Source of the DNA: an uncultured delta proteobacterium
GTDB lineage: Bacteria > Desulfobacterota > Binatia > Binatales > Binataceae
Length of the DNA: 64,000 nt
Direction: 5' to 3'
Assembly: GCA_963711565.1 (NCBI GenBank)
Contig: CAVQEQ010000003.1
Span: 768,001 to 832,000 of the forward strand
The translations under genes were made by a program, and so were the position numbers. Positions 50,598 to 61,469 of this stretch are shown here, one piece after another (within the stretch, counting starts at the first letter, position 1; each line of letters starts with the position of its first letter). The notes beneath the pieces are model-generated. The model saw only the letters and a program-made list of their open reading frames with translations, made no database searches and was not told the DNA's origin.

Positions 50598-51560
50598 CTA
50601 ACCGCGCATCCGCTCTCTCGGGCCTAGAAATCGATCGCCGTTGTAGTGGATCAGATGTTCTGGGAGATCAGCGATCCAGACCTCAGTGTCCCAAGCGATC
50701 GTGTTGGTATGGCGGCGAAATTCGGTCATGTCCGGGAATGCCGAAACGTAGATCAATCCAGCGGGACAGTTGGCCAGCATCAATTCGAGCTCAAGCACCC
50801 GTTTGCTAGACATCGGCCCATGCGACGTTACGGCCTCGACCAGGAAGAGCCAGTTCCGCTTTTTGTCGTAAATGATCACGTCCGGAAGCTTGTCATGCTC
50901 AGTTATAGGAATGCCGAGCGTCTTCAACATCTGACTATCGACATGGAGGTTCTTCTTCGCCGTATCGCCGAGATACAAGAGTCTGGGGTCTTCGGCGAAG
51001 CGCGTTGCAAATTGTTCAACAATGGCTTTCTGTAGCTCGTTATGCGACCCCGGCGAGAGGTTGACCACTCCTCCATCTGGAAACCGGACTGGAATCAAAC
51101 GTTTTGAACGGCGTCTCTGATAGATCTCGATCAGCGAGGTGCGACCGGACAAAAATTTCGCGAGCGCTGGCTGCCACTGGGACGTTCCGAAGGTCTTGAT
51201 AGCGTTCAGCGCGGCTTCAGATACTGCATAGTGGGAATGGGGACTGTTGGTTGCTAGGTTTGGCTCGAAAGGATTGTGTTCTGCGACTCCCGCGAGAACG
51301 AATTGATGTAAGACTTGGCGGCGTATTGTTTCTCTTGTGTTCGCCGCATACGCGACTCGGTATTTCTTTTCTCGGACGAAGTCCATGATGCCCTTGGTGC
51401 CAGAGCGACGATCACGGCTGGCCTTCGACCAGGCATCATTGACTGCTATTCCGCAGAGGGCCAAAAGCGTAAGGGCAGAAATCTGATTTTGCTGCGATCC
51501 GGGGAGCCCGAACGCTTTTAGAATTGCCTGAGCTTGTGCGATCTTTTCTGACTTTTTCAC
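50598..51560 (-). CDS. Type II restriction endonuclease, BsuBI/PstI family
   Basis: YAANTRETIRRQVLHQF, LSPGSHNEL, YLGDT, HDKLPDV, LVEAVTSHGP, IAWDTEVW, HYNGDRFLGP. Confidence 0.92.
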   Translation of the reverse strand: MKKSEKIAQAQAILKAFGLPGSQQNQISALTLLALCGIAVNDAWSKASRDRRSGTKGIMDFVREKKYRVAYAANTRETIRRQVLHQFVLAGVAEHNPFEPNLATNSPHSHYAVSEAALNAIKTFGTSQWQPALAKFLSGRTSLIEIYQRRRSKRLIPVRFPDGGVVNLSPGSHNELQKAIVEQFATRFAEDPRLLYLGDTAKKNLHVDSQMLKTLGIPITEHDKLPDVIIYDKKRNWLFLVEAVTSHGPMSSKRVLELELMLANCPAGLIYVSAFPDMTEFRRHTNTIAWDTEVWIADLPEHLIHYNGDRFLGPRERMRG

Positions 51561-53128
51561 CGCGCAGTGCCAATAGCCTCCTTGACGATATCGTCCAGGC
51601 TTTCGCCGCCGCTCTGCTTCCTCACGCGTTGTCCGATGAAGACGATCATATCGCGAGGCGGTAGAGGCATCGCGCGCAACTCCGTTGCGCTCACCTGTGT
51701 ATTGCCACTTGATACTCTGAAGTAGGTGTCGAGCAACTCGCTATTGAGAAGCGCGGCCAGCCCCAAAGCTTCGTTCTCGTTCATTTCGTCACGCATCGAA
51801 TATATGTAGTTCAAGTGATTCTCGATCCCGAGCAGTGACCCGGGAACAGAGCCTTTCAGCCAAGGCGCAGCAACTAATCGCCGCGCTTCTTCTTTCGCGC
51901 TGAAGCGTCGGATCAAAACGTAGTTGCGGTTGGGTAGTAGCAGAGATTTTTCGGTCGCGACTGTGCTGATGTATTGAGGTTTGCGCGTCTCAATTGGGAA
52001 GGTTACCTGCATCGCCAGGACGTGGTTCATCCAGATGAGAGGGGCATAGTCGTTCGATGGAACACCAATCTTGTCGATATACTCAGTTGCTCGAAAAGGA
52101 ACGACCGGTCCCGTCGAGATATTCATCTCGTACTGGTGGAGAGAGCCGGTCCACGAATCGACGAGGCGAAGCGCCGCGTCCTCACCCGGCAGAATCGGAA
52201 GGCGGAAGATTTTAGAGCTGCTAGCCATGTCCAGCGCGTCTCTAAGCGGAAGCGATCGGCGATTAAGATGAGCGAGGTCCGCGATACCGGCACTGCCAGT
52301 TATCTCCAGCTCGAAACCTTCGCGACTATGTTGCCATCCGTCGTCCCTGACACCTCTCAGAATAATGCTCTCCTGGAGAACCTCGTCTCGTCCGAAGGCT
52401 TCGCGGCGCGAGCCAAAGACGTGAACCCCCACAGGGCGGATGTTAGCGAAGAACTTTTCTCGAAAGAGCCGGAAGTATGGACCTGATGCGAAACTGCGAG
52501 GTGTTATGAACAGGAACTCTCCCCCCTTTCGTAAGAGGGCCGCGGTCGCCGCCATGAAGAGTGCATAAATGTTCGGCTGTCCATGAACGACGACCATCGC
52601 AGCCTGAGCCCGGGGATCGTCTTTAGAAATCTTGAAGTACGGCGGATTCGCGATAACTAGATCGAAGCACTCCCTCGATTGCGTATCAAACAAGTGACCG
52701 TTGGATCTGAAGCTTCCAGCGTGGGCCAACACGAAGTCCTGCTTTTCGATCCTGACACTCACTTCAACTTGATGCTCTTCGGCCCAGCGCTTGAGACGGT
52801 CCAGGACAGAAGCGAGAGCTTCTTGTAGATCCGGATCTGTCTCGTATGCGGTTAGTTCCACTTTACGCACCCGTGGTTCGGCTATTGCCAAACCCTCAAC
52901 AATCGCGCAGAGAAGAGTGCCGGATCCTGCGGCGGGATCCAGAATTCGGATCTCCGACGCGCTGGTATTTGCTTGCCCGGCAATGAAGTCGGCCACTTCG
53001 ACAGGTGTGAGGTACAGCCCGCCAGCTTTACGCTCGGCGGGAGTTTTGCGCGCTACGATCCCTGCGCCAAGACGGTCCGCAAACCGGCTGGGAAGACTCT
53101 CCCAACTGTGACGCTTATACGAAGCCAC
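51557..53128 (-). CDS. N6-adenine DNA methyltransferase (BsuBI/PstI, Eco57I-like domain)
   Basis: ILDPAAGSG motif I, NPPY motif IV, TGPVVPFR, ENHLN, GNTQVSATEL. Confidence 0.92.
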   Translation of the reverse strand: MASYKRHSWESLPSRFADRLGAGIVARKTPAERKAGGLYLTPVEVADFIAGQANTSASEIRILDPAAGSGTLLCAIVEGLAIAEPRVRKVELTAYETDPDLQEALASVLDRLKRWAEEHQVEVSVRIEKQDFVLAHAGSFRSNGHLFDTQSRECFDLVIANPPYFKISKDDPRAQAAMVVVHGQPNIYALFMAATAALLRKGGEFLFITPRSFASGPYFRLFREKFFANIRPVGVHVFGSRREAFGRDEVLQESIILRGVRDDGWQHSREGFELEITGSAGIADLAHLNRRSLPLRDALDMASSSKIFRLPILPGEDAALRLVDSWTGSLHQYEMNISTGPVVPFRATEYIDKIGVPSNDYAPLIWMNHVLAMQVTFPIETRKPQYISTVATEKSLLLPNRNYVLIRRFSAKEEARRLVAAPWLKGSVPGSLLGIENHLNYIYSMRDEMNENEALGLAALLNSELLDTYFRVSSGNTQVSATELRAMPLPPRDMIVFIGQRVRKQSGGESLDDIVKEAIGTAR

Positions 53129-56255: not shown

Positions 56256-56341
56256 GCCGAGGTGGCGGAATGGCAGACGCAGAGGACTCAAAATCCTCCG
56301 TGGGCAACCACGTGCGGGTTCAAGTCCCGCCCTCGGCACCA
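56256..56341 (+). tRNA. tRNA-Leu(CAA)
   Basis: GCCGAGG/CCTCGGC acceptor stem, GAGGA-CTCAAAA-TCCTC anticodon arm, long variable arm, GTTCAAGTC T-loop, encoded CCA. Confidence 0.96.
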
Positions 56342-56440
56342 ACTTCCGTCAGGCGACTTCTAGGCGACTACTAACCGTTGATTCCTGGCAGCCCTTGCCG
56401 GATGCGGATCTTGTATGAGCTTGACGGTCAGCCCGCACGC

Positions 56441-57166
56441 TTAGCCGACGACAGCAAAAGGAAAATACGGTTCTCCGCTCCTACCGCTATCGATCTGCGG
56501 ATTTTGAGCATAGGCCGTACGTTGCCTTACTACGCTGCGCGCTTTCTCATGAGCAGCCATAATAGACATGACTTGGAGAGCGTTGGGACCCTGAGCTTTC
56601 GCCCAATCAGAACCAGCCGTCATAAGGTGATTCGAATAGTAACCCCCGGTCGAGCTACTTCCGGCAGCTTCTTCGCCAGGACTGCATGCATACGCCTTGA
56701 TAGCAAGTTTAGTGCACCGCTCGATTTCCACGTCGTACATTACCCTACATAGTACGCCATTACGGTTCACGGCCGCTTTGGCTAGAGATTTTAGTAGCAC
56801 ATCTTCTGAGATTTCTGGTGTTCTTTCGACTCTGCAACAGTCAAGAATGATCGTCTGTTTTTTCCCGGTACGCAGGCTGTCCGAATCCAACGTCCCATCT
56901 TCCAGACCTATAAAGGTATCGCGATTAACTTGATCGCCGTGGCCGGCAAACACCACAAGAGAGTAATCTGCACCTTTAAGACGTTGGACGGCGTTCAGAA
57001 CGTCTGCCGTGTCCGGCCGTATCAGTCGTTCGATCTCTTCCGAGTACCAAAACCCTCCATGCTCATGCATCAAGAATGCACAATATTCACGGACGTCGAT
57101 CCGAACGCCGGTTCTGTCTGGCTCATCTTTGCCCGGATGCCCAATTATAAGAGCGCGTCGTTCCAT
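56441..57166 (-). CDS. Caspase-like protease (peptidase C14)
   Basis: RRALIIG first strand, FAGHG catalytic His, ILDCCR catalytic Cys, ACSPGEEA, GGYYS, QNP. Confidence 0.85.
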   Translation of the reverse strand: MERRALIIGHPGKDEPDRTGVRIDVREYCAFLMHEHGGFWYSEEIERLIRPDTADVLNAVQRLKGADYSLVVFAGHGDQVNRDTFIGLEDGTLDSDSLRTGKKQTIILDCCRVERTPEISEDVLLKSLAKAAVNRNGVLCRVMYDVEIERCTKLAIKAYACSPGEEAAGSSSTGGYYSNHLMTAGSDWAKAQGPNALQVMSIMAAHEKARSVVRQRTAYAQNPQIDSGRSGEPYFPFAVVG

Positions 57167-57184
57167 TCTGTTTTTAATCCTCGG

Positions 57185-57838
57185 CTAGCCTTCAGGGTGT
57201 AACGTCATCTCGTCTCGCAGAAATTCCTCAAGGCGTTCGCCACTAGGTTCGATCGCCGCCCGCGTCTTCCCTTCTTCCCTAGCTTCGCGTTCATAAAACT
57301 CATTGGCGACCCACTCGAATTCAGTGAACGATTGCGGCACATTTCCCTCGCGCTGACGATCGCGTTCGCGGAAAACATACTCCTTGCAGGCCGTCCACCA
57401 GCGAGACGCATGAAAGCCAAACGTGTTCCAAGCTAGCTCCTTGTGAATCAAACCGAGCCGATATAGAATCGCGAATGATTCAAAGAAGTCCATCACCGAC
57501 TCGGTGATCTCGTCGTGATTAGCCTTATCTAAAATCTTGCGTGCTAGGACAGCTCGATGCTTTTCCATCCGCTCGCCATCCCACTTCTCTTCAACCATCA
57601 TGTGCAGTCTGACTGCGAGGTCCGCTCTGAGATCATCTGACTGCTGCCGCATTGCGGTTCGCACATCGCCTGAATGACGTTCTAGTGCCGTCTGCGCGTC
57701 TTGCGCCTGCTGGCTTATGGCAGACTTCGTCGCATTAACTAAAGAACGAGTTAACCGATACAAGCCGAAGGTAGCCCCAGCAAGGACCCAAGTCCCGATT
57801 GCAACCCAGTCGAGTTTACATGCAGATTCGAAATTCAC
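57185..57838 (-). CDS. Single-TM membrane protein with coiled linker and DUF4760-like domain
   Basis: N-terminal TM (WVAIGTWVLAGATFGL); VMDFFESFAILYRLGLI and FTEFEWVA patterns. Confidence 0.7.
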   Translation of the reverse strand: MNFESACKLDWVAIGTWVLAGATFGLYRLTRSLVNATKSAISQQAQDAQTALERHSGDVRTAMRQQSDDLRADLAVRLHMMVEEKWDGERMEKHRAVLARKILDKANHDEITESVMDFFESFAILYRLGLIHKELAWNTFGFHASRWWTACKEYVFRERDRQREGNVPQSFTEFEWVANEFYEREAREEGKTRAAIEPSGERLEEFLRDEMTLHPEG

Positions 57839-57851
57839 CCCTGCTTCCTAT

Positions 57852-58091
57852 CTACGAAACGTCTGTGACTGTCAGGAACACACTGCAGTGATTTTCCCAA
57901 TAGGTGAGGTAGCGCGAGAGCACCATGTATTTATTGGTCTGCCCCACGGCGCCGCCGACATTCTTGCAGTCAACAATATCGCCTACGTTCGGAAGAGGAA
58001 GCGACTGGCCAGCCGCGATTTCCACGGGTTCGTGTATGTCGGGAGATCCCTTCGCTCTGTACTTGACAAAGACGTGGGTATTATCAGTCAT
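57852..58091 (-). CDS. Small hypothetical beta-rich protein
   Basis: Fills the gap in a tightly packed operon; LPLPNVGDIV...Y.V.SR pattern. Alternative ATG at 58109. Confidence 0.65.
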   Translation of the reverse strand: MTDNTHVFVKYRAKGSPDIHEPVEIAAGQSLPLPNVGDIVDCKNVGGAVGQTNKYMVLSRYLTYWENHCSVFLTVTDVS

Positions 58092-58109
58092 AGATTCACC
58101 GCTGCCCAT

Positions 58110-58436
58110 CTAATCAGCGAGCCGTGTAAGCACCGCTCGAAAAGTAACTCCAGGCACCTCGGTTGCAGTCCCCATCAACTGCGCGGAATCGCCCTGCGAT
58201 GAGCCGGTAAGGGTGATGTTGACTCGGTCTATGCCAAATACCGAAGTCATAAAAGAAGTATTCGTATGGAGATCCACTTTCACACGGGCAGTGACTTGTC
58301 CGCTGCTCTCGTTGAAAGTGCCGACGTAGTAGGTGCGCGAGTCACCACCCCTCACCTTGCCGTCTTGGATTGCCAAGACTCCGACTCCCGACCCTCGTGG
58401 CGTCGAGAAAGCAACTTTATATAGCCCATCTCTCAT
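58110..58436 (-). CDS. GrlR-like beta-barrel protein
   Basis: MRDGLYKVAFSTPRGSGVGV...GKVRGGDS..YYVG pattern; GGAGG RBS. Confidence 0.75.
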   Translation of the reverse strand: MRDGLYKVAFSTPRGSGVGVLAIQDGKVRGGDSRTYYVGTFNESSGQVTARVKVDLHTNTSFMTSVFGIDRVNITLTGSSQGDSAQLMGTATEVPGVTFRAVLTRLAD

Positions 58437-58569
58437 CGGCCCTAACCTCCTGCTTTTTCAAATTCTAGCGGATGAGTTCACGGCAATCGAGACAGCGGAC
58501 CAACACGTTGTCAACGGTTGTCAAGCGATTGCCGACCCCGGCGCAGCGCAGGTTTAGCAGGAGTGCATT

Positions 58570-59559
58570 TCACATTAGCCCTTGCCGGATGCGGGCGGAA
58601 AAATCGGGAGAGTCGCCGGCGGCTTTTGCTTTTTCTGTGATGTTGCTCCGCGACCGCAGCTCCGCGAAGGGGATGCTTGTGTCGATCTGGCCGCGCTCAT
58701 AAAGCAGTTCGTCGAGATGTCCGTTTGCCAGCAGCCGCCAGTCGAGACTGCCGCCGGCGCCGATGTTTTGCGCGTGGCCTCGAATCGCCGTCGTACAGTT
58801 CTGCGTCAATGCGTTGTACCACTCCGGATGATCGGCGAGCTGATTCACTTCGTTCAGGTAATCAACCAGCAGCGCGCGCGCCTGCGCGGGAGTAGCGCTG
58901 ATGCGATACAAATAGACCTGCTCACCGCGGTAGTTGGCTCGCAGCCCGACCAGGTCGCGTTCATCGGCGACCACATAGTACAGCTCGTACTGGCGGAAGA
59001 AACCGCGGATCGCGGAATATGATTCGCCCTTCTCCTTGCGCGTCTCAATCGAGATCGCAAGATGCTGACCGTTGTCGAAATCCCAACTGACGATCGTGTG
59101 CGCGATCTCAGTCGGCCCCCAAAACGAGATAAACAGGTCAACGCCTTTGATCCGATCGAGGTCGCAGCTCCGCGTCTCCCAGCGCTGGTCGTAGTCGGAT
59201 TCGGATCGATATTTGAAATTTCGAACGTTCTCGATCGTAACGCGGCTGCCGTCAAAAGTTACGCGCGCTGTGCGGGACACATCGGGCGTCCAGTCGCGCG
59301 CATTGCTCGGCGGAATCAACGTCCACCAAAGCGCGACGACAATCACCGGAAATAACGCGACCACGAGTCCTCGTAGCAGCGGGCGAACGATAGCCGCCAA
59401 AATGATGCTGACGATCGCCAATCCGGCCGCCATCGGCGCCGCCAGCATGCGCGAATGCGGCCCGTCGAACCAGATCGCCATGACGCCCCATGCGACTGCG
59501 GCAACGACGATCACCAACATCACGATCGTCGCGACGATGCGAACTGCGCGCCGGATCAT
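58570..59559 (-). CDS. DUF4105 (Lnb N-terminal-like) membrane-anchored protein
   Basis: PSNARDW, NVRNF.Y, AHTIVS, SIETRKE, YNALTQNCTT. Confidence 0.88.
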   Translation of the reverse strand: MIRRAVRIVATIVMLVIVVAAVAWGVMAIWFDGPHSRMLAAPMAAGLAIVSIILAAIVRPLLRGLVVALFPVIVVALWWTLIPPSNARDWTPDVSRTARVTFDGSRVTIENVRNFKYRSESDYDQRWETRSCDLDRIKGVDLFISFWGPTEIAHTIVSWDFDNGQHLAISIETRKEKGESYSAIRGFFRQYELYYVVADERDLVGLRANYRGEQVYLYRISATPAQARALLVDYLNEVNQLADHPEWYNALTQNCTTAIRGHAQNIGAGGSLDWRLLANGHLDELLYERGQIDTSIPFAELRSRSNITEKAKAAGDSPDFSARIRQGLM

Positions 59560-61469
59560 CAGTGGATTCCGGCGTGCTCGTAGAGGATGCGGCGGACTTC
59601 CTCGATCGTCTGGGGAGTGGCCTGCGTCGAGTGCCCCGAACGCACGACCAGCTCGGATTCGACGCCGTCGATATGCGCGCTCTGGTACTCGACGACGCCG
59701 TCGTTGCCTTCCTCGATCGGACCGCTGCCCTTCACCGGAATGATCGAATGCGCGTGCACGCCGGGCGCGATTGGCAACGAGGAGAGTGCCTTGATGAATC
59801 GGTTGGAGGCATCCATGTTGTCCAGCGCGGTCGGCATCGTAAACGGAGTTCCGATCATGCTGGCCTCGCGCAGGTTACCTAGCGCAACCGCTGACTTGGC
59901 GAGGCTGCCGGGCAGGTTGATGAATTTGTTTCCGAACTTGACGACAGGATTGCCGGCCATGTAGCTGCCGCGATGCGGTGTTGCGATGAAGATCACCTCC
60001 GTCACATATGGCTGCGGCTTGAAGAACATCGCGCGCAAGGCCAGGTCGCGCGTCTCGGGATCGAGATGCGCCTGGTCGAACGGGACCGACGTGACGTTGT
60101 TCCAGAAGCGATTGCCGCTATCGACGACCATCATCTTCGTCAACAGCCCGCCCTGGCTGTGGCCGATCACTACCATCTTGTTGAGCGCGACGTCCTTGCC
60201 CTCGGGATCGACGGCCCTGCGCACAGCCTGCAGAGATTCCCGCAAACGCATTGCGGACAGCACGATCGGATTACCGCTGTTATACATGAAGAACCAAAGC
60301 TGATAGCGCGACGCGATCTTCGGATCGCCCAGCAATTCATTCGTCATCTCCGCCCATCGCGCGGGGCTCGACGCCGTGCCGTGTACGAACACCAGCGGGA
60401 TCATGTTCGGGTGGTATGGATGCAACATGAAGAGCCCGTTGACGTCGTCGCCCTTGCCAACACCCAGAAGAGAGAAGTCTCCCTGGCGAAAGCCGGCGAT
60501 CTCGAAATCCCAAAGCGGCGCGCCTTCCAGCCGATAGGCAAGCGCGGCGCTGGAGTCCGATTCGAGCGGCACCGATTGCGTGCCTACCCGTACGGAATCC
60601 GCCCTGTCCTCGTCGTAGAGCTCGACGGTGCCGTGCAGACGCCCGGTGCTCATCGCGAGGCGCGGATCGTCGAAGCGCACGAACGCGGTCATCGGCACCT
60701 TCGCATTCGCCGGAATCCATCGGCTCGACGGGCTGCCCGGAGTCGGCTCGACTCGAGCCGAGAGCGCCGCACCAATACCAGGCCTGCGGTAGGTGTTGCG
60801 CAGCCCGCGAACCTTCAGGTCTGCGAGCGATACGAAGTTGGTCAGGTGATTTCCGGCGTAGTTGAATCCCTCCGGCTCGACGCCCAAGTTTAGCGACCCG
60901 AATGGCAACCTCAGTTGACGCGCGCTCAGGTCAACTTCCATTCCGTCTTTGGTCGCAAGTCCCAAAGCGATCCCCCGATTGTAAAGGTCAACGGCGAGCC
61001 GCAAGCGCGGGTCGTACGGACCGGGCGCGTCCGCCGGATTGGCAGGAAACAAAAAGGCGTACGCATAGGCGGCGGAGGCCAGGTAGTAGGATTGTTTCCC
61101 GGAGTTTTCCGCGTACGCAAATGACAGCTCGGACAGCGCGAACAAGCGATCGCGTTCGTCAGGTTTGCCGAGTCCCGAATTCAACTCGGCAAGTACCGCT
61201 TGCGGATCGCTTTTGAAGCGATCGATAAGCGCGGTCCGCTCCAGGATCTGCATCGAGTAGGCGCTCGGTTTGTCGGTCGAAAGAACGTTCGCATTCAACT
61301 CGCGATGCGCTGTCTGTTCGTTGAGGCGCGTGACTCCGACCGGTGTGGCGCAACCGCTGCTGAATAGAACTGCGAACGCAAGTACTGCAGTCCAGATGCC
61401 AGTCAACGGGCGTGCCCGTTCCGGCGCGCTGGAGATCACCGTAGCGTTTGAAACCAACTGAGTTCTCAT
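59559..61469 (-). CDS. Alpha/beta-hydrolase lipoprotein (esterase/lipase)
   Basis: Lipobox SSGC, FVHGTASS, GHSQGG, ATPHRGS, DGVV, SGHS. Confidence 0.88.
   Translation of the reverse strand: MRTQLVSNATVISSAPERARPLTGIWTAVLAFAVLFSSGCATPVGVTRLNEQTAHRELNANVLSTDKPSAYSMQILERTALIDRFKSDPQAVLAELNSGLGKPDERDRLFALSELSFAYAENSGKQSYYLASAAYAYAFLFPANPADAPGPYDPRLRLAVDLYNRGIALGLATKDGMEVDLSARQLRLPFGSLNLGVEPEGFNYAGNHLTNFVSLADLKVRGLRNTYRRPGIGAALSARVEPTPGSPSSRWIPANAKVPMTAFVRFDDPRLAMSTGRLHGTVELYDEDRADSVRVGTQSVPLESDSSAALAYRLEGAPLWDFEIAGFRQGDFSLLGVGKGDDVNGLFMLHPYHPNMIPLVFVHGTASSPARWAEMTNELLGDPKIASRYQLWFFMYNSGNPIVLSAMRLRESLQAVRRAVDPEGKDVALNKMVVIGHSQGGLLTKMMVVDSGNRFWNNVTSVPFDQAHLDPETRDLALRAMFFKPQPYVTEVIFIATPHRGSYMAGNPVVKFGNKFINLPGSLAKSAVALGNLREASMIGTPFTMPTALDNMDASNRFIKALSSLPIAPGVHAHSIIPVKGSGPIEEGNDGVVEYQSAHIDGVESELVVRSGHSTQATPQTIEEVRRILYEHAGIH

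Follow-up and report, generated by a model that had tools for sequence, protein, structure and literature searches.

Several bacterial systems couple a caspase-like protease to a partner protein. In the predicted EACC1-caspase system, a protein with a single transmembrane (TM) segment was proposed as the caspase activator (Kaur et al., 2020; PMC7159879). The type IV Thoeris caspase is presented as a promiscuous, Arg-specific executioner (10.1101/2024.10.24.620036). In Canu a caspase-family protease activates a pro-effector and, likewise, proteases activate gasdermin (PMC13434031). Dimerisation of caspases involves the p10 sheet, and those C14 enzymes other than caspases that have been characterised cleave after Arg or Lys (PMC5756287). 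Here we describe a locus with features of these systems in a 64,000-nucleotide stretch of DNA (the window; positions 768,001 to 832,000 of contig CAVQEQ010000003.1) from an uncultured soil bacterium of the Binataceae. Four co-oriented, tightly packed minus-strand open reading frames (ORFs; gaps of 0, 13 and 18 nt) code for a caspase-like protease, a DUF4760 membrane protein, a small protein and a protein labelled GrlR-like. The packing is as described in an earlier reading of the sequence alone (the sequence-only reading), which had proposed the four genes as one candidate protease-based defence or death module. Comparison across loci suggests that the recurring unit is likely a two-gene core, a caspase with a swappable membrane partner, and we consider it probable that this core is defensive, in whichever direction its two proteins act on each other.

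The protease is, as first read, a stand-alone C14 enzyme of 241 residues with an intact His-Cys dyad. It matched the Pfam caspase family (PF00656; E 1.6e-17, 64 bits against a cut-off of 21), and in 146 aligned relatives the dyad is kept (H76 in 99%, C111 in 100%), as is D109 (100%). The Pfam score, the position of the dyad in GHG and DxC motifs and a caspase-hemoglobinase fold all place it in C14. The structural model is six-stranded and MALT1-like, the paracaspase MALT1 being the best fold match, and a conserved C-terminal strand, FPFAVV, closes the protein. Neither a sensor nor an effector domain is present, and the top 150 matches in the family measure 178-318 residues. The acidic residues D24, D109 and E165, aligned with the GCxND and DSCH motifs of metacaspases, presumably form the substrate pocket; this alignment suggests that the P1 residue may be Arg or Lys. 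At 50% identity the family resolves into 1,726 clusters, and the genomes that carry its loci are assigned by name to at least seven phyla. Its distribution is patchy, with one occurrence in 164 genomes of the bacterial family (G502) and none in 400 other genomes of the phylum. In viral contigs, no relative of the caspase or of the DUF4760 protein was found. On the caspase tree the window protein and four relatives share a long branch, and those four lie outside the neighbour counts that follow.

Caspase genes were compared at 42 loci, of which 14 came from GTDB genomes, 25 from metagenomes, two from five plasmid records and one from the family; removal of six with a caspase identical to another left 36 distinct loci. 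A gene for a predicted membrane protein is directly adjacent in 30 of the 36, and codes for a four-helix protein (20 loci), a DUF4760-like protein (seven) or a protein of a third, single-helix family (three). The other six loci are four contigs shorter than 1.8 kb, L054, where the caspase gene is truncated beside a transposase-like ORF, and L049, which has an unassigned membrane gene downstream. The co-occurrence of homologues on which the earlier proposal was to be judged is thus seen for the caspase/membrane-protein pair and fails for the four genes together. In each of the seven loci with a DUF4760-like gene (one of them a fragment, E 0.11), that gene is the direct neighbour of the caspase gene, and none was found elsewhere in the 36 loci. 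A profile made from the window protein and its own homologues, with none of the genes of these loci, placed caspase-adjacent genes as the top 9 of 1,705 ORFs; a second profile, from stand-alone DUF4760 genes, placed them as the top 8. Moreover, profile-profile comparison joined the window DUF4760 set and the caspase-adjacent set (probability 96%, E 6.5e-9).

These data bear on the view that the four genes are unrelated cargo of a variable slot, in which an orphan caspase gene came to lie beside one of the DUF4760 genes of the genus by chance. Each gene is found separately in relatives, identity between the window DUF4760 protein and the caspase-linked DUF4760-like proteins is low, and in G440, a genome 63% complete in which no caspase was detected, an integrase and a GrlR-like gene of 85% identity accompany a different DUF4760 gene. 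Against chance stand the direct adjacency in 7 of 36 other loci, and nowhere else in them, of a family that is rare (Pfam matches in 16 of 301 genomes of the phylum), and the co-orientation and 18-nt gap of the pair in the window. We regard an accidental association as doubtful.

The four-helix protein, the commonest partner, has 260-310 residues and combines a soluble domain at its N-terminus with as many as four membrane helices. Its motifs are WLD..DWET, RNxExxRxW before helix 1, and GAxG and GxSER within the helices. Two of the 20 copies are contig-edge fragments and one is split; examples are found at L047:7195-8001, L050:8802-9689 and L083:2402-3307, with copies at 17 other loci. The protein belongs to no Pfam, PADLOC or NCBIfam family, matches only unnamed clusters of the ESM Atlas, and was not found in the window genome or in plasmids. 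At L077:3322-5756 a four-helix gene is followed by two tandem caspase genes, and in L064/L080 and L073 a second gene, with a C14 or CHAT domain, lies downstream. The third family (L067:5820-6266, minus strand; L081:4552-4854; L082:4544-4996) has a single helix and the motifs QYPY.E and LRYDSYC. Its L067 and L082 members are 30% identical (E 1e-21), the L081 copy is shorter (101 residues), and the gene is convergent with the caspase gene in one locus and upstream of it in Leptospira plasmids. Homology of the four-helix or third family to DUF4760 was not detected (hhalign probability <2%).

The position of the partner gene also varies: it may lie upstream, downstream (L050, L057, L059), in convergent orientation (L067, L076) or in divergent orientation (L083), with gaps of -29 to +74 nt across 19 co-oriented pairs. 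Four-helix and DUF4760-like partners are mutually exclusive within a locus. On the caspase tree, from which fragments of <200 residues were excluded, partners were swapped in six changes, at least three of them forced by starred branches, and 16-18 of 500 shuffles were as low. One constant protease with three exchangeable membrane partners looks like effector swapping, and the pair could work in the reverse direction: the protease would sense a phage product and cleave the membrane protein, freeing a membrane-damaging effector. The conserved small and polar residues in the helices of the four-helix partner, with a conserved Arg just before helix 1 as a candidate cut site, are consistent with this, as are the Canu and gasdermin precedents. 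However, the protease lacks a sensor domain, the partner in the window is single-pass and all-helical, with a marginal hydrophobic helix that makes it a poor pore candidate, and DUF4760 genes commonly occur without a protease. A substrate role for the membrane protein, the role suggested in the sequence-only reading, is possible, and on balance somewhat unlikely.

The TM protein of the window was assigned to DUF4760 (PF15956) with 36.8 bits, against a gathering cut-off of 25. That it has one hydrophobic helix, as first described, is correct, but the helix is marginal (Kyte-Doolittle 19-mer maximum 1.23, residues 9-27). In the structural model a hydrophobic N-terminus runs into a 77-residue helix (11-87), followed by a helical head (89-212), and there is no beta strand. 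The modelled head is predicted to resemble part of the EP domain of EDS1 and PAD4, at 3-14% identity. In plants, the EP domain acts as an adaptor, and a cavity in its dimer binds nucleotides made by TIR enzymes. Foldseek with the DUF4760 model returned nothing at E<=0.001 from the PDB or BFVD (best BFVD match unnamed, E 0.014), a search with profile A4 gave no EDS1 chain at E<=10, and PF18117 (EDS1_EP) had one sub-cut-off match elsewhere in the window's own genome and none at the DUF4760 gene. The EP domain is described as lacking structural homologues beyond the EDS1 family (PMC6377607). It would be a long shot that the EP domain of EDS1/PAD4 has a membrane-anchored bacterial forerunner in DUF4760 and that the locus is a receptor-caspase death module, whose EP-like head would sense infection or a nucleotide signal and recruit the paracaspase, the four-helix protein being an interchangeable receptor. 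If true, the EP domain would gain a prokaryotic origin within immunity and a two-gene system for testing.

Homologues of the TM protein occur in 5 of the 164 family genomes, G502 not among them. The window genome has a second DUF4760 gene, 31% identical (G000:C3:1023154-1024682; L121:8155-9683), which immediately follows a gene with an AbiTii domain (PF18864, E 5e-37); this is possibly a second defence pairing of DUF4760. Stand-alone DUF4760 genes in three family genomes (L110, L111 and L137) overlap the same short unannotated downstream gene, which is another recurring DUF4760 pairing. In the literature, DUF4760 appears in the main text of PMC9964261 as a table entry.

The surroundings of the caspase genes were scanned with PADLOC, covering up to six neighbours within 5 kb. 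Of the 36 loci, 25 entered the scan, which excluded short contigs, the two plasmid loci and L083. Defence-type matches were present in 18 of the 25 loci and matches of any kind in 20, two loci having generic matches only and five none; the sorting into generic and defence-type was our own judgement. As a control, 20 random 10-kb stretches were drawn from one genome, that of the window, and two overlapping ones were dropped: 5 of the remaining 18 had any match, and one (BilD) may be defence-type. The neighbours include restriction-modification (RM) types I-IV, IetAS, TIR, PtuB-like HNH, STK/PP2C and PDC candidates. A TIR gene lies about 2 kb from the caspase gene in L049 only, among the loci scanned, and an HNH gene is adjacent in L067. 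The surroundings are thus rich in defence genes (18/25 loci against 1/18 random stretches) and, together with the recurrence of the pair, they sustain the earlier suggestion of an undescribed, probably defensive module, now confined to the caspase and its membrane partner.

Possibly, the pair cooperates outside phage defence, as a membrane-linked proteolytic switch or as an addiction module that serves mobile elements. Several caspase loci have integrases, resolvases or relaxases nearby, mobile elements and defence islands overlap, and 7 of the 25 loci scanned have no defence-type neighbour. Yet no transcription factor or third gene recurs, the neighbours are RM, IetAS, TIR, HNH and candidate defence genes, and the caspase family is patchy in both the phylum and the family. 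A non-defensive switch seems to us improbable.

Tentatively, we favour an anti-phage module of two genes: the DUF4760 protein would serve as trigger and scaffold, and the protease would be the executioner. We rank a trigger role for the membrane protein slightly above a substrate role. This choice is made because the protease is sensor-less, its last strand is conserved, its partner has a stalk and a head, and type IV Thoeris and EACC1 offer parallels. Upon infection the DUF4760 membrane protein would cluster, and clustering would bring two protease molecules together via the conserved FPFAVV strand. The dimerised protease, with its putative acidic pocket of D24, D109 and E165, would then cleave host proteins after Arg or Lys, and the cell would arrest or die before phage maturation. 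Two observations weigh against an obligate pair. Among the 16 genomes of the phylum with a DUF4760 match (of 301), only the window match has a caspase gene within 1.5 kb, and the four-helix gene was found once in the 301 genomes, without a caspase gene in its 3.8-kb locus.

The two remaining genes are likely unrelated cargo, passengers of the insert described below. The GrlR-like identity given in the sequence-only reading is weak: the protein scored 12.8 bits on NF010652, the family of the LEE negative regulator GrlR, against a cut-off of 205 (15.3 for its G440 homologue), and it has no Pfam match at E<=1; it matched phrog_2483 at E 1.6e-5. The small protein has no significant Pfam, NCBIfam or PHROG match, and in the ESM Atlas only unnamed 0.89-level matches; alignments with its homologues begin at residue 7, and its start may be the ATG at 58091. 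GrlR-like homologues occur in 18 of the 164 family genomes, four at 51-85% identity, and are absent from the caspase genome G502. The closest gene, at 85% in G440, lies between the integrase and the different DUF4760 gene, near a terminase gene, and DNA likeness to G440 is limited exactly to the GrlR-like gene. Small-protein homologues occur in two of the 164 (68% and 75% identity), one near a terminase gene; the closest full-length gene is that of G479, near a terminase gene. The prophage-like elements at L114:7249-13131 (G440) and L118:8186-11581 (G479) have terminases related to each other and, towards one end, genes for GrlR-like, DUF4760 and small proteins; elements of this type are likely the source of such cargo.

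In the sequence-only reading the four genes were a candidate single system, with a GrlR-like inhibitor and a small-protein sensor or the converse. Their tight co-orientation within one insert with duplicated ends would suit such a system, as would the recovery, from runs that belong to a second study, of pieces of all four that are 99-100% identical, and the presence, once elsewhere (G440), of a GrlR-like gene beside a DUF4760 gene. Against it, no homologue of the GrlR-like or the small protein turned up when 41 caspase loci, with 1,705 ORFs between them, were searched (best E 0.47 and 0.99), and both small genes are present in genomes that yielded no caspase, as is the case for all family genomes with close homologues of either. 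A four-gene system is very improbable, and that part of the earlier proposal is not supported.

Table 1. Features of the cassette and its insertion site (window coordinates).
Feature	Position	Strand	Remarks
tRNA-Leu(CAA)	56256-56341	+	ARAGORN
Displaced original lnb 3' end	56371-56389	minus	With the repeat, encodes RIRQGLPGING-stop
Left copy of the 18-bp direct repeat (att core or duplicated target)	56390-56407		Exact match to right copy
Stand-alone caspase-like protease gene, 241 aa	56441-57166	minus	PF00656
DUF4760 membrane protein gene, 217 aa	57185-57838	minus	PF15956
Small-protein gene, 79-85 aa, without family	57852-58109	minus	Likely passenger
GrlR-like / phrog_2483 small-protein gene, 108 aa	58110-58436	minus	Likely passenger
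Insert leader	58437-58576	minus	58520-58576 common to related strains with other DNA beyond
18-bp direct repeat, right copy	58577-58594		Within lnb 3' end
Lnb_N-domain host gene lnb, insertion target	58570-59559	minus	PF13387, E 6e-43; now ends RIRQGLM-stop

The features of the region are collected in Table 1. Comparison with relatives indicates that 2,169 bp went into the 3' end of lnb. The 18-bp repeat has just two copies in the 4.84-Mb genome, bracketing the four genes; by itself it is not significant, since 77 of 1,000 random 3.3-kb stretches contain one as long, and the case for insertion therefore rests on the position of the repeat and on the comparison with empty sites. G001 has a single copy, at its lnb end, and 35 of 40 bases match across the displaced-end side. 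In 11 of 14 relatives (10 of 13 without G023) lnb continues ...GLP, ending QGLPGISG in G007, which matches the left-copy side, whereas lnb of the window has a new end. In relatives, the interval from tRNA-Leu(CAA) to lnb holds variable DNA along with duplicates of the tRNA 3' end, and this tRNA gene is an island hot spot in the genus; no lnb-end repeat was seen in five other tRNA-lnb intervals. The duplicated attachment core and the empty site in relatives are those of an integrative element; an integrase of its own is lacking, as no recombinase, integrase or transposase match was found among the only four ORFs between the repeats. Records of runs X4, X6 and X7 start at 58520-58537, match the first 40-57 bp of the insert beside lnb and then diverge, and that of X4 rejoins the window at the tRNA end, which suggests a slot with exchangeable cargo at lnb/tRNA. 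The insert thus probably occupies a variable cargo slot as the remnant of an integrative element, or was mobilised in trans. Among the matches listed for the region in 40 relatives (22 weaker ones are unlisted), none covers the four genes, and an excised-circle joint was not found in eight runs, all of them contigs, which drop rare forms.

The cassette was rightly read as low in GC, at 52.3% against 61% genome-wide (the lowest 0.7% of 4,838 2-kb windows), although the 60-mers sampled for that reading (45-47%) exaggerate the drop. An assembly artefact is unlikely, because run X1, possibly the source sample, has a single contig of 3,379 bp that covers 56301-59600, and because fragments of all four genes, 99-100% identical, are present in X2 and X3, which are runs from a different study. 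At positions 57752-57753 (codon 29 of the TM gene) runs X1-X4 all disagree with the window, and X1 and X2 differ from it at several positions of lnb (58924-59546); these may reflect strain variants or local errors of the assembly. A 193-bp contig from an RNA library (57963-58155) matches the cassette and does not demonstrate transcription. In the leader, AGGAGG lies 9 nt upstream of the first ATG, and sigma-70 sites were at chance level in a promoter scan (2 found, 2.0 expected). A weak match of the leader to L035/L036 was discarded, the matched part being inside a coding gene. A BsuBI/PstI-type type II RM pair at 50598-53128 (minus strand; PADLOC E 2e-110 and 2e-99; about 54% GC), 3.3 kb from the cassette, is apparently a separate insertion.

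Neither PADLOC 2023 nor NCBIfam has a matching model for the caspase family or its partners, and we found no description of the caspase-membrane pair in full-text literature outside subscription papers; closed supplements of large defence screens may list it. The main texts of 10.1101/2025.01.08.631726 and 10.1101/2025.01.08.631966, whose supplements list many predicted systems, contain no mention of caspase, peptidase or DUF4760. That the combination is known from no described system is in keeping with these searches. The gene context ties DUF4760, and the EP-like fold of its model, to immunity, and among the partners the four-helix family is best suited to an initial phage test. Table S5A of PMC9122126, on the P2 antiviral hotspot of E. 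coli, a prophage slot holding antiviral genes, lists DUF4760 1,199 times; the Pfam family is the same, and in two of these rows the partners are StbA, Plasmid_stab_B and hypotheticals, with no caspase term in the supplements searched. Relative to the plant EP domain (EDS1/PAD4/SAG101, PF18117), the DUF4760 head would correspond to only part of the domain, without a hidden Markov model match or a lipase-like domain, and with a membrane anchor.

The EACC1-caspase system shares the gene order, a caspase gene with a single-TM gene 5' of it. There the constant part is EACC1, marked by alpha+beta extensions and a glycine patch, its caspase being fused to up to 50 effector domains; here the caspase is alone and constant, and the membrane partner is variable and, in the model, all-helical. 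The window caspase scored 20.6 bits on NF047832 and five relatives 17-27, against a cut-off of 140; the 5' gene carries DUF4760 in place of an EACC1 domain, with no NCBIfam match, and C-terminal fusions are absent, the protein ending at its last strand. Type IV Thoeris, for which N7-cADPR is the activating signal, is likewise a two-gene module with a caspase-like protease, modelled as a dimer (10.1101/2024.10.24.620036), but our cassette has a membrane-protein partner, no TIR gene and no recurring signal-making enzyme. Gasdermin folds are beta-rich. The DUF4760 partner has no beta strand in the model and no Pfam or PADLOC match to gasdermin, and no nuclease match was found among the four cassette genes; gasdermin-protease operons and Canu, whose CanA is called paracaspase-like (PMC13434031), share with our locus a protease and partner in anti-phage DNA. 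The module therefore resembles the EACC1-caspase, type IV Thoeris and gasdermin/Canu protease modules yet falls outside each of them, and a protease with three membrane partners offers a compact, cloneable test of caspase switching without TIR, CRISPR or NLR partners.
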